A stretch of 64,000 nucleotides of DNA from NCBI RefSeq assembly GCF_988242995.1, contig NZ_OZ547043.1; one strand, given 5' to 3'. The stretch's first letter is position 1, and every line of letters starts with the position of its first letter. The position numbers were made by a program, and so were the translations under genes. Below are positions 60,657 through 61,297 of this stretch, piece after piece. A model generated the notes under the pieces. The model worked only from the letters and a program-made list of their open reading frames with translations. It was not told the DNA's origin and did not search any database.

Positions 60657-61016
60657 ATGACCAAACGCCAGGGCAAAAACCGCAGGCGCGTTAACCGTCT
60701 TATTGAACTATGGCCTGAATTATTCAGCCTGGAATCACCGAAGCCGCTTAAGGTAGGGATATTTGAAGACCTGATACAGGATATTGCCGTCAGGGCGCTG
60801 GCTTTTGGGTCAGGGGCATTACGTGCGGCGCTAGCATCTTATGCTCATTCTCCGCGTTATTACCGTGCCTTAATGGCTGGTGGCGTGCGTTACGATCTGA
60901 ATTGCCAGCCATGCGGTGAGGTGACACAACAGGAACAGCAGGACGCGGAAGCACGACTGATGGCACTGAAAGAGAAGCGCAAACGTAAGTCGAACAAGGA
61001 ACAAGCTGGCGTATGA
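60657..61016 (+). CDS. FinO/ProQ-domain RNA-binding protein
   Basis: 119-aa ORF aligning by eye with the ProQ N-terminal FinO domain (PLKVGIFEDLIQDI vs ProQ PLKIGIFQDLVDRV; YDLNCQPCGEV vs VDLDGNPCGEL). Confidence 0.7.
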   Translation: MTKRQGKNRRRVNRLIELWPELFSLESPKPLKVGIFEDLIQDIAVRALAFGSGALRAALASYAHSPRYYRALMAGGVRYDLNCQPCGEVTQQEQQDAEARLMALKEKRKRKSNKEQAGV

Positions 61017-61297
61017 GTATGATTCACGACAGTAGAGCGGAAGATCTGGAGGCTAAAGGCCTGTACCGGAGAGCGGCGACCCGATGGGCTGAGGTCATGC
61101 AACAGGTGAACACCGATAAGGAGCGCGAACAGGCAGTAAAGCGTCGCGCGGAATGTATCCACAAGGCAGCACGTTCGCCCGTCATGCTGGATAATTTCGG
61201 GGGCTTGAGAGAGGCAGCAAACCGCACACAGGCGGATATGGGGATAGAAATCGCAAAATCTGTCTGGCGGAACTACCAGACAGACAAGGTTTTATAG
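61013..61297 (+). CDS. PerC-like transcriptional regulator
   Basis: 94-aa ORF; motif LEAKGLYRRAATRWAEVM resembles the PerC/Pch family core; start overlaps previous stop (ATGA). Confidence 0.5.
   Translation: MSMIHDSRAEDLEAKGLYRRAATRWAEVMQQVNTDKEREQAVKRRAECIHKAARSPVMLDNFGGLREAANRTQADMGIEIAKSVWRNYQTDKVL

Follow-up and report, generated by a model that had tools for sequence, protein, structure and literature searches.

A PerC family gene, apparently of the PchE type, in the replication module of a putative phage satellite of Escherichia coli

The present analysis concerns a stretch of 64,000 nucleotides from an Escherichia coli chromosome (contig NZ_OZ547043.1 of RefSeq assembly GCF_988242995.1), in the following called the window, and in particular a small gene at positions 61019..61297 of its plus strand, which encodes a protein of 92 amino acids belonging to the PerC family. 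This family is named for the activation of the LEE1 (ler) promoter in the enterocyte effacement locus (LEE). The gene closes a run of three genes, ssb, a ProQ/FinO-domain gene and perC, which is opened by ssb and lies on an island inserted at a tRNA gene.

Membership of the window protein in the PerC family is as good as certain. The Pfam profile PerC (PF06069; gathering score 22.6) matches it with 111.5 bits (E = 2.4e-32) over positions 1-88 of 90, which is far above chance, and the RefSeq protein WP_166697537.1, named 'PerC family transcriptional regulator', is identical to the product of the window gene. Among the PHROGs it is assigned to phrog_994 (E = 1e-35), next to matches with several families labelled 'transcriptional activator'. 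A preceding reading of the DNA from its letters and open reading frames (ORFs) alone, in the following the sequence-only reading, had described a 94-aa ORF with a PerC/Pch-like motif at 61013-61297. This ORF is present on the plus strand exactly as described, LEAKGLYRRAATRWAEVM is found in its translation, and the motif turned out to be the invariant core of the family; the search with the hidden Markov model (HMM) of the PerC family, which had been suggested as a check, is positive over nearly the whole profile.

The residues typical of the family are all present in the window protein, namely the signature A-x-x-L-E-x-x-G-x-[YW]-R-R-A-A-x-R-W in helices 1-2, the cysteine of helix 3 and a distal MG[IL]. 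In an alignment with PerC of enteropathogenic E. coli (EPEC), a group-1 Pch-like protein, EcCIMP1_025 and others, the columns A9, L12, E13, K15, G16, Y18, R19, R20, A21, A22, R24, W25, M29, D35, R38, C48, R54, G77 and R86 are invariant. The core is conserved to at least 90% among 136 representative homologues drawn from 1.8 billion proteins, all 136 of which are Pfam PerC matches themselves, and homologues of the N-terminal domain occur in temperate phages and in 70-72-kb phages of Salmonella and Shigella. With regard to characterised relatives, the window protein shares 57-59% identity with PchE, 46% with the group-1 Pch-like protein, 44% with EcCIMP1_025, 41% with EPEC PerC and 35% with PchD. 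Judged by these similarities, it appears to be a PchE-type (group 3) member of the family.

There are two in-frame start codons. The ATG at 61013 leads to the 94-aa form, but the real product probably comprises the 92 amino acids from 61019, since nearly all PerC homologues begin with M-[IV]-x-D, the NCBI Prokaryotic Genome Annotation Pipeline (PGAP) places the beginning of the identical gene at the second of these ATGs (61019 in the window), and in sibling islands without the upstream ATG the stop codon of the FinO gene overlaps the ATG of the conserved MIHD start. The reading frame is intact and identical to the copy of strain LH13-b. Compared with copies that are 78-85% identical, the ratio of non-synonymous to synonymous substitution rates (dN/dS) is 0.27-0.30; perC is under purifying selection. 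A spurious or decaying ORF is ruled out by the HMM score together with this ratio.

Directly upstream of perC lies the ProQ/FinO-domain gene (60480..61016, plus strand; Pfam ProQ PF04352, 88.1 bits), which comprises 178 codons in relatives and matches the NCBIfam profiles FinO and ProQ only below their cut-offs. In the window, the gene is interrupted by a premature TAG at 60648-60650, at the position of a TGG in the 178-aa gene of LH13-b; at all other positions of the 881 nt compared the two sequences are identical. Because of this TGG-to-TAG change, the gene is broken up, and the 119-aa ORF reported by the sequence-only reading corresponds to its distal part. The FinO domain lies wholly inside this distal ORF (60657-61016), so that a restart at the ATG at 60657 could yield a complete domain in a product of 119 aa, which would be without the Lys/Gln/Thr-rich N-terminal 56 residues. 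An intact gene for 174-178 aa is found in E. albertii (locus L006) and in six other E. coli islands (within L053-L059).

The TGA of the FinO gene (61014-61016) overlaps the ATG at 61013 in an ATGA, and the start at 61019 is located 2 nt past the FinO stop. With either start codon the two genes are tightly coupled, and this coupling, by a 4-nt overlap or a 2-nt gap, is conserved in each of the E. coli and E. albertii variants that were compared. The translational coupling by an ATGA overlap, as proposed in the sequence-only reading, is thus borne out with regard to the overlap itself and to the close linkage of the genes, but perC is unlikely to start there and probably starts at 61019. A universal pairing of FinO and PerC was considered and rejected: beyond the islands of E. 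coli and E. albertii, only two of the 13 other satellite loci, L017 in Pantoea and L019 in Leclercia, have a FinO gene placed between ssb and perC. Because of this restricted occurrence, the FinO gene is best regarded as an optional insertion that has become fixed within the islands' E. coli lineage. When the island was scanned with Rfam for a possible RNA partner of the FinO-domain protein near perC, nothing emerged in 59800-62500, the sole hits being a C4 and an isrK-like RNA further upstream, which are candidate ligands of this protein. Just 3' of the perC stop codon, a sigma-70-like site on the minus strand (61310-61337; TCTACA, 16-nt spacer, AATAAT) is directed antisense into perC. Sigma-70-like sites in the perC region are no more numerous than in shuffled sequences, so that this site is only a lead for an antisense RNA which could be used by a FinO-type protein.

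The localisation of perC on an island, as assumed by the sequence-only reading, was confirmed by comparison with the empty site of E. coli K-12. Relative to this site, the window contains an insertion of 8.95 kb (approximately 54393-63364) between yejM/lapC and yejO, bounded by the 3' end of a tRNA-Pro gene and a repeat of it. The gene is proL for tRNA-Pro(GGG) (54339..54417, plus strand; ARAGORN and Rfam tRNA), whose 3' end (approximately 54393-54417) represents attL; the alignment to the K-12 empty site stops at 54417. Imperfectly repeated at 63340..63364 (plus strand), the same tRNA end also represents attR, as positions 566-590 of the K-12 sequence align to both 54393-54417 and 63340-63364. 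The att sites were set by this comparison, while a search for exact direct repeats missed the imperfect attR. Just inside each island end there is a 39-nt direct repeat with 79% identity (54521-54559 and 63248-63286), which contains TTAGTTATAYGTTTRGTTAYACG; the pair plausibly represents candidate arm-type binding sites of the integrase. A stretch of 1.7 kb around perC is 99.9% identical to strain LH13-b, for which PGAP annotates in this order a single-stranded DNA-binding protein, a ProQ/FINO family protein and a PerC family transcriptional regulator. Near-identical islands are known from poultry, river-water, vegetable and human isolates.

At its proL end, the island encodes a P4-type tyrosine integrase with an Arm-DNA-binding domain (54622..55866, plus strand; Pfam Phage_integrase, Arm-DNA-bind_3 and Phage_int_M; phrog_1), followed by an AlpA-family regulator (56130..56321, plus strand; Pfam Phage_AlpA, 28 bits with a cut-off of 21), which PGAP describes as a regulator with a helix-turn-helix (HTH). 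AlpA is the master activator of the phage-inducible chromosomal islands (PICIs) of Gram-negative bacteria. An isrK-like RNA (56725-56801; 47 bits in Rfam, just below the threshold of 50) and a C4 antisense RNA (56826-56913; 76 bits, gathering score 45) sit within a region annotated by PGAP as an 'ash family' pseudogene, upstream of an Icd-like ORF. The satellite carries with these elements a c4-icd immunity module of the P1/P7 type.

The next gene (57363..57650, plus strand; Pfam DUF4222, 85.1 bits) overlaps the start of the primase gene and encodes a homologue of RgdR with 61% identity to the protein of strain Sakai (ECs_1581). RgdR is a regulator of type III secretion, for which an RGD motif has been reported as required (PMC3378721). 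At the position of this motif, the window protein reads HGD (FMHGDIYRD), in resemblance to the inactive CGD variant of the commensal strain ED1a. The primase/replication-initiator gene (57647..59782, plus strand; Pfam DUF927, 158.8 bits; phrog_1139 'DNA primase', E = 1e-166) is followed by iteron cluster A (59807..59943) with six copies of GGGACARGT (minus strand: two, plus strand: four) that are arranged on both sides of an AT-rich spacer. This cluster would correspond to a PICI-type origin-like region and lies directly upstream of ssb (60019..60444, plus strand; Pfam SSB, 61.1 bits; TIGR00621, 66.6 bits).

Directly 3' of perC there is a conserved ORF of 69 aa (61354..61563, plus strand; phrog_7206, E = 1.9e-6), which is 99% conserved in E. 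albertii L006 and called as a 66-aa gene in L057-L059. Its sub-threshold match to a Tad2-like domain of Thoeris anti-defence (12.9 bits, cut-off 25) is probably due to chance. Between perC with this ORF and the distal genes, an AT-rich stretch (61600-61900) has a GC content of approximately 0.36. A second iteron cluster with the same architecture, cluster B (62100..62225), is located approximately 0.8 kb 3' of perC. In total, the window contains 11 matches to GGGACARGT compared with 0.55 expected by chance; both clusters consist of inverted sets with an AT-rich spacer in their middle, and ssb, finO, perC and the 69-aa ORF lie between the two clusters. Both are present in LH13-b and E. albertii, only the distal one in L057 and neither in other variants, and since the iteron clusters vary in this way among the sibling islands, an exchange of the replication module as a mosaic is suggested.

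The last gene of the island (62526-63122) encodes a PmgG-like protein of 198 aa (phrog_1114 'PmgG-like head morphogenesis', E = 9e-60; no Pfam family) and is its sole structural-type gene; the PGAP and PHROGs annotations contain no lysis or tail genes. Together with the Icd, Ash and C4 elements, the PmgG-like gene points to a possible P1-like helper phage; a P22-like helper would also be suggested by the Icd-, Ash- and PmgG-like genes. A larger sibling type (L053-L056; locus coordinates 9102-14001) occupies the same yejM-proL-yejO site. It carries, 3' of the same ssb-ProQ-PerC run, genes for a second PerC paralogue of 100 aa (12051-12353), a Phage_Nu1 small-terminase-like protein and a protein with a SocA_Panacea antitoxin domain.

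Hallmarks of the PICIs of Gram-negative bacteria are AlpA, a subsequent primase or rep gene, and an iteron-containing origin with two inverted sets around an AT-rich spacer (PMC6092414). The island in the window possesses an integrase gene at its end together with a specific att site, as well as AlpA, the DUF927 primase and the iterons at 59807-59943, while its 8.95 kb are somewhat small compared to the approximately 10-15 kb of PICIs. By its gene content it would therefore be classified as a PICI-like phage satellite at tRNA-Pro that resembles the EcCIMP1 family. Induction by a helper phage, packaging and transfer have been demonstrated for the related EcCIMP1 only (PMC11773190).

The neighbourhood of perC was also compared across genera, using one genome per species and tblastn with the proteins of the window itself, by which other primase families would be missed. 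Among 44 species-level PerC loci, 13 possess a DUF927 primase gene directly upstream of perC, with or without ssb in between, and two additional truncated loci possess ssb only. The arrangement pri-(ssb)-perC occurs, among others, in Shimwellia, Enterobacter, Lonsdalea, Chimaeribacter, Erwinia, Pantoea, Leclercia, Citrobacter and Lelliottia. LEE is not known from these genera. The module following perC differs by lineage, with a capsid/packaging set in Sp7 of E. coli Sakai and in L004 and other sets in Pantoea and Erwinia. The PchE-type branch of the family is thus bound up with a replication module that belongs to a widespread family of satellites, and since this arrangement includes genera not known for LEE, it argues for an ancestral job of PchE-type proteins other than LEE activation.

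Taking these observations together, we slightly favour the overall reading that the window gene encodes a PchE-type PerC protein in the replication operon of a satellite, which remodels complexes of H-NS or of activators; for the mechanistic part taken by itself, our confidence falls a little short of even. The protein would not be a classical DNA-binding activator. According to the predicted fold, its approximately 90 residues form four helices without an HTH. The conserved N-terminal half resembles tetratricopeptide repeats (TPR) and overlaps, below the cut-off, the profile of the ANR anti-activators (the family of Aar and its relatives), and a sequence search of the PDB returned no relative even at E ≤ 10. 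Most likely, protein-protein contacts would serve to remodel H-NS-type nucleoprotein complexes or master regulators. Such an adaptor mechanism is suggested because of what the literature reports on Pch at LEE1, on the ANR proteins and on the phenotypes of PchE and EcCIMP1_025. Pch activates LEE1 only by relieving the silencing by H-NS, StpA, Hha and YdgT, and it displaces H-NS in vitro (PMC4764244). The ANR proteins bind AraC-type activators and H-NS, as summarised in the literature. For PchE, only a small effect on LEE has been reported, along with repression of csgD and curli and an increased expression of flhDC and flagella (PMC6265319, PMC7369912), and EcCIMP1_025 silences LEE1 in a dose-dependent manner (PMC11773190).

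By analogy to pchE, whose transcript is polycistronic with ECs1586 and ssb and starts just upstream of them (PMC7369912), a promoter close to the origin would probably drive a weak expression of perC in the lysogen. Expression would probably become stronger once AlpA turns on the satellite operon. The protein would then be made together with the replication proteins of the satellite. A scan for sigma-70 consensus sites on the plus strand between pri and ssb revealed no site, and the region upstream of ssb is not alignable to that part of Sakai Sp7 in which the pchE promoter has been mapped; the iterons also differ between the two. As output, a shift in H-NS-controlled regulons would be expected, in the host for curli with csgD and for flagella with flhDC, and AT-rich parts of the island might possibly be affected as well; an activation of LEE1 would not be expected. 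As approximately 40% of the residues differ between PchE and the window protein, it can only be inferred that the targets csgD and flhDC are shared. A cross-talk between island and host transcription, which the sequence-only reading had suggested, is plausible in the light of the published work on PchE (PMC6265319, PMC7369912) and EcCIMP1_025 (PMC11773190).

It is conceivable, although in our opinion unlikely, that the window protein is an ANR-like anti-activator or silencer that binds an AraC/XylS-type factor or H-NS, as does Aar and as has been proposed for EcCIMP1_025. Both the ANR proteins and, as predicted, the window protein are small, all-helical and without a DNA-binding domain, and the helical TPR-like fold would suit the binding of proteins. 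Residues 8-54 of the window protein align to positions 8-54 of the 54-position profile ANR_neg_reg (NCBIfam NF033650), but the score of 17.2-17.3 bits does not reach the cut-off of 32 bits and remains far below it. At E ≤ 0.01, this profile gives cross-hits with 101 of the 136 PerC representatives (best 6.3e-12). The window protein is longer than the profile, so that its fourth helix and the conserved C-terminal MGI...FR motif are not covered. Moreover, neither the scanned ORFs of the island nor the annotation of its identical counterpart by PGAP contain an AraC-family domain, and perC lacks a linkage to an AraC-family gene. The repression of csgD by PchE and the silencing of LEE1 by EcCIMP1_025 (44% identity, likewise from a satellite with a DUF927 primase) would agree with a negative regulator, but PchE also raises flhDC and ler, which means that its effect is not negative throughout.

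About equally doubtful appears a role as a core regulator of the satellite life cycle, which would open the downstream module or genes of the helper phage, for example by counter-silencing of AT-rich DNA. The gene has a fixed place at the end of the replication module, just before the downstream module, in many lineages; its family phrog_994 is a phage family with relatives annotated as phage transcriptional activators, and the homologues of the N-terminal domain in temperate phages and in the 70-72-kb phages of Salmonella and Shigella point in the same direction. The AT-rich stretch at 61600-61900 separates perC and the 69-aa ORF from the distal genes, and some sibling islands contain two PerC paralogues. 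However, the 9-kb island has hardly any downstream module, with only the one PmgG-like gene, and a target site or regulated promoter was not identified in this analysis. In EcCIMP1-like elements, the presence of PerC has been described by Pick et al. as 'more variable' than that of ash or primase (PMC11773190). Furthermore, pchE is expressed in uninduced lysogens, and an SOS-inducing antibiotic represses pchE rather than inducing it (PMC6265319, PMC7369912).

A more far-reaching reading, to which we assign a low probability as a whole, combines several of these elements: PerC-type proteins would be core regulators of DUF927-primase satellites across the Enterobacterales rather than 'virulence accessory genes'. 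They may be TPR-like anti-silencers made with the replication proteins and, in the E. coli islands, may be paired by translational coupling with a FinO-domain RNA chaperone. The chaperone may serve antisense RNAs of the C4/IsrK type on the island, and the pair may govern how the satellite passes from replication to its distal module, or may manipulate surface structures of the host as well as the helper phage. If this holds true, the regulation of LEE by PerC and Pch would be a secondary co-option.

A classical virulence activator of LEE1 (ler), comparable to EPEC PerC and to PchA/B/C of enterohaemorrhagic E. coli (EHEC), is what the sequence-only reading implied. We judge this role to be clearly improbable, and among the outcomes of a cross-talk with the host it seems the least likely one, because PchE barely affects LEE, a PICI homologue silences LEE1, and the pri-(ssb)-perC order also exists in genera like Pantoea, Erwinia, Lonsdalea and Shimwellia, which are not known for LEE. 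The varied origin of the near-identical islands, from poultry and river water to vegetables and humans, also speaks against it. The common Pfam family, the invariant motif and the identity of 41-46% to EPEC PerC and the group-1 Pch-like protein are in favour of such a role, and some PICI-encoded PerC homologues activate LEE according to Fillol-Salom et al. (PMC6092414). However, PchD, like the nearest relative PchE, hardly affects LEE (PMC6265319), and the PICI homologues of strains EDL933 and CFT073 had no effect on LEE1-lacZ (PMC11773190). Finally, a decaying or silent passenger gene is very improbable, since the premature TAG in the adjoining FinO gene, the annotation of ash as a pseudogene in the identical island and the small size of an island without packaging genes are opposed by a perC gene that is intact and identical to that of LH13-b, shows the low dN/dS given above, retains all family-invariant residues and has a start context conserved across the variants.

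The identification of the gene as perC is correct but ordinary and amounts to routine annotation, because RefSeq already names the identical protein. PerC alleles on PICIs of Gram-negative bacteria were reported in 2018 (PMC6092414) and one of them was tested in 2025 (PMC11773190), while PchE on O-island 51 was described in 2012. In the literature searched, no statement was found on pri-(ssb)-perC synteny as a systematic feature of genera without LEE, nor on the FinO-PerC coupling that is conserved in E. coli islands, and these two observations constitute the modest novelty of the present study. Its value is therefore mainly contextual, whereas the annotation itself adds nothing.

There are instructive similarities and differences between the window protein and its characterised relatives. 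With EPEC PerC (perABC of plasmid pEAF) and EHEC PchA/B/C it shares the Pfam family, the LE-KG-YRRAA-RW core, the conserved cysteine and a horizontal origin. These genes lie, however, in the plasmid-borne perABC operon or beside the lysis cassette of a prophage and not in a satellite as in the window, and the Pch proteins of group 1 (104 aa) possess a C-terminal extension without counterpart in the window protein. It is the H-NS-dependent activation of LEE1 that defines PerC and PchA/B/C, and exactly this property is missing in PchE, the closer relative of the window protein.

EcCIMP1_025 is encoded by the PICI EcCIMP1 of E. coli MP1, a mobilisable element that possesses, like the island in the window, ash, Icd-like, DUF4222 and TOPRIM/DUF927 primase genes. 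The protein shows the same invariant motif as the window PerC and also a weak ANR signal, which has been remarked by Pick et al. in 2025 (PMC11773190). In contrast to perC of the window, its gene occupies the distal end of EcCIMP1, a long way from the primase gene and after genes for P22-like ejection proteins, and there is no coupling to a FinO gene. Furthermore, EcCIMP1 integrates at tRNA-Thr, whereas the island in the window is inserted at tRNA-Pro.

The closest parallel is PchE of E. coli O157:H7 Sakai (ECs_1588), which is encoded on Sp7 (O-island 51) and is similar to the window protein over its full length (90 aa compared to 92 aa). Sp7 differs from the window island by its size of 15 kb, the capsid, portal and terminase genes following pchE and the insertion site between roxA and phoQ. 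Within its ssb-pchE group, there is an 83-aa ORF instead of the FinO gene, and its iterons are of a different sequence. However, Sp7 also encodes a P4-type integrase, AlpA, RgdR and a DUF927 primase, its primase (ECs_1582) shares 74% and its SSB (ECs_1587) 66% identity with the respective window protein, and pchE follows the primase gene, a small ORF and ssb, just as perC in the window follows primase and ssb.

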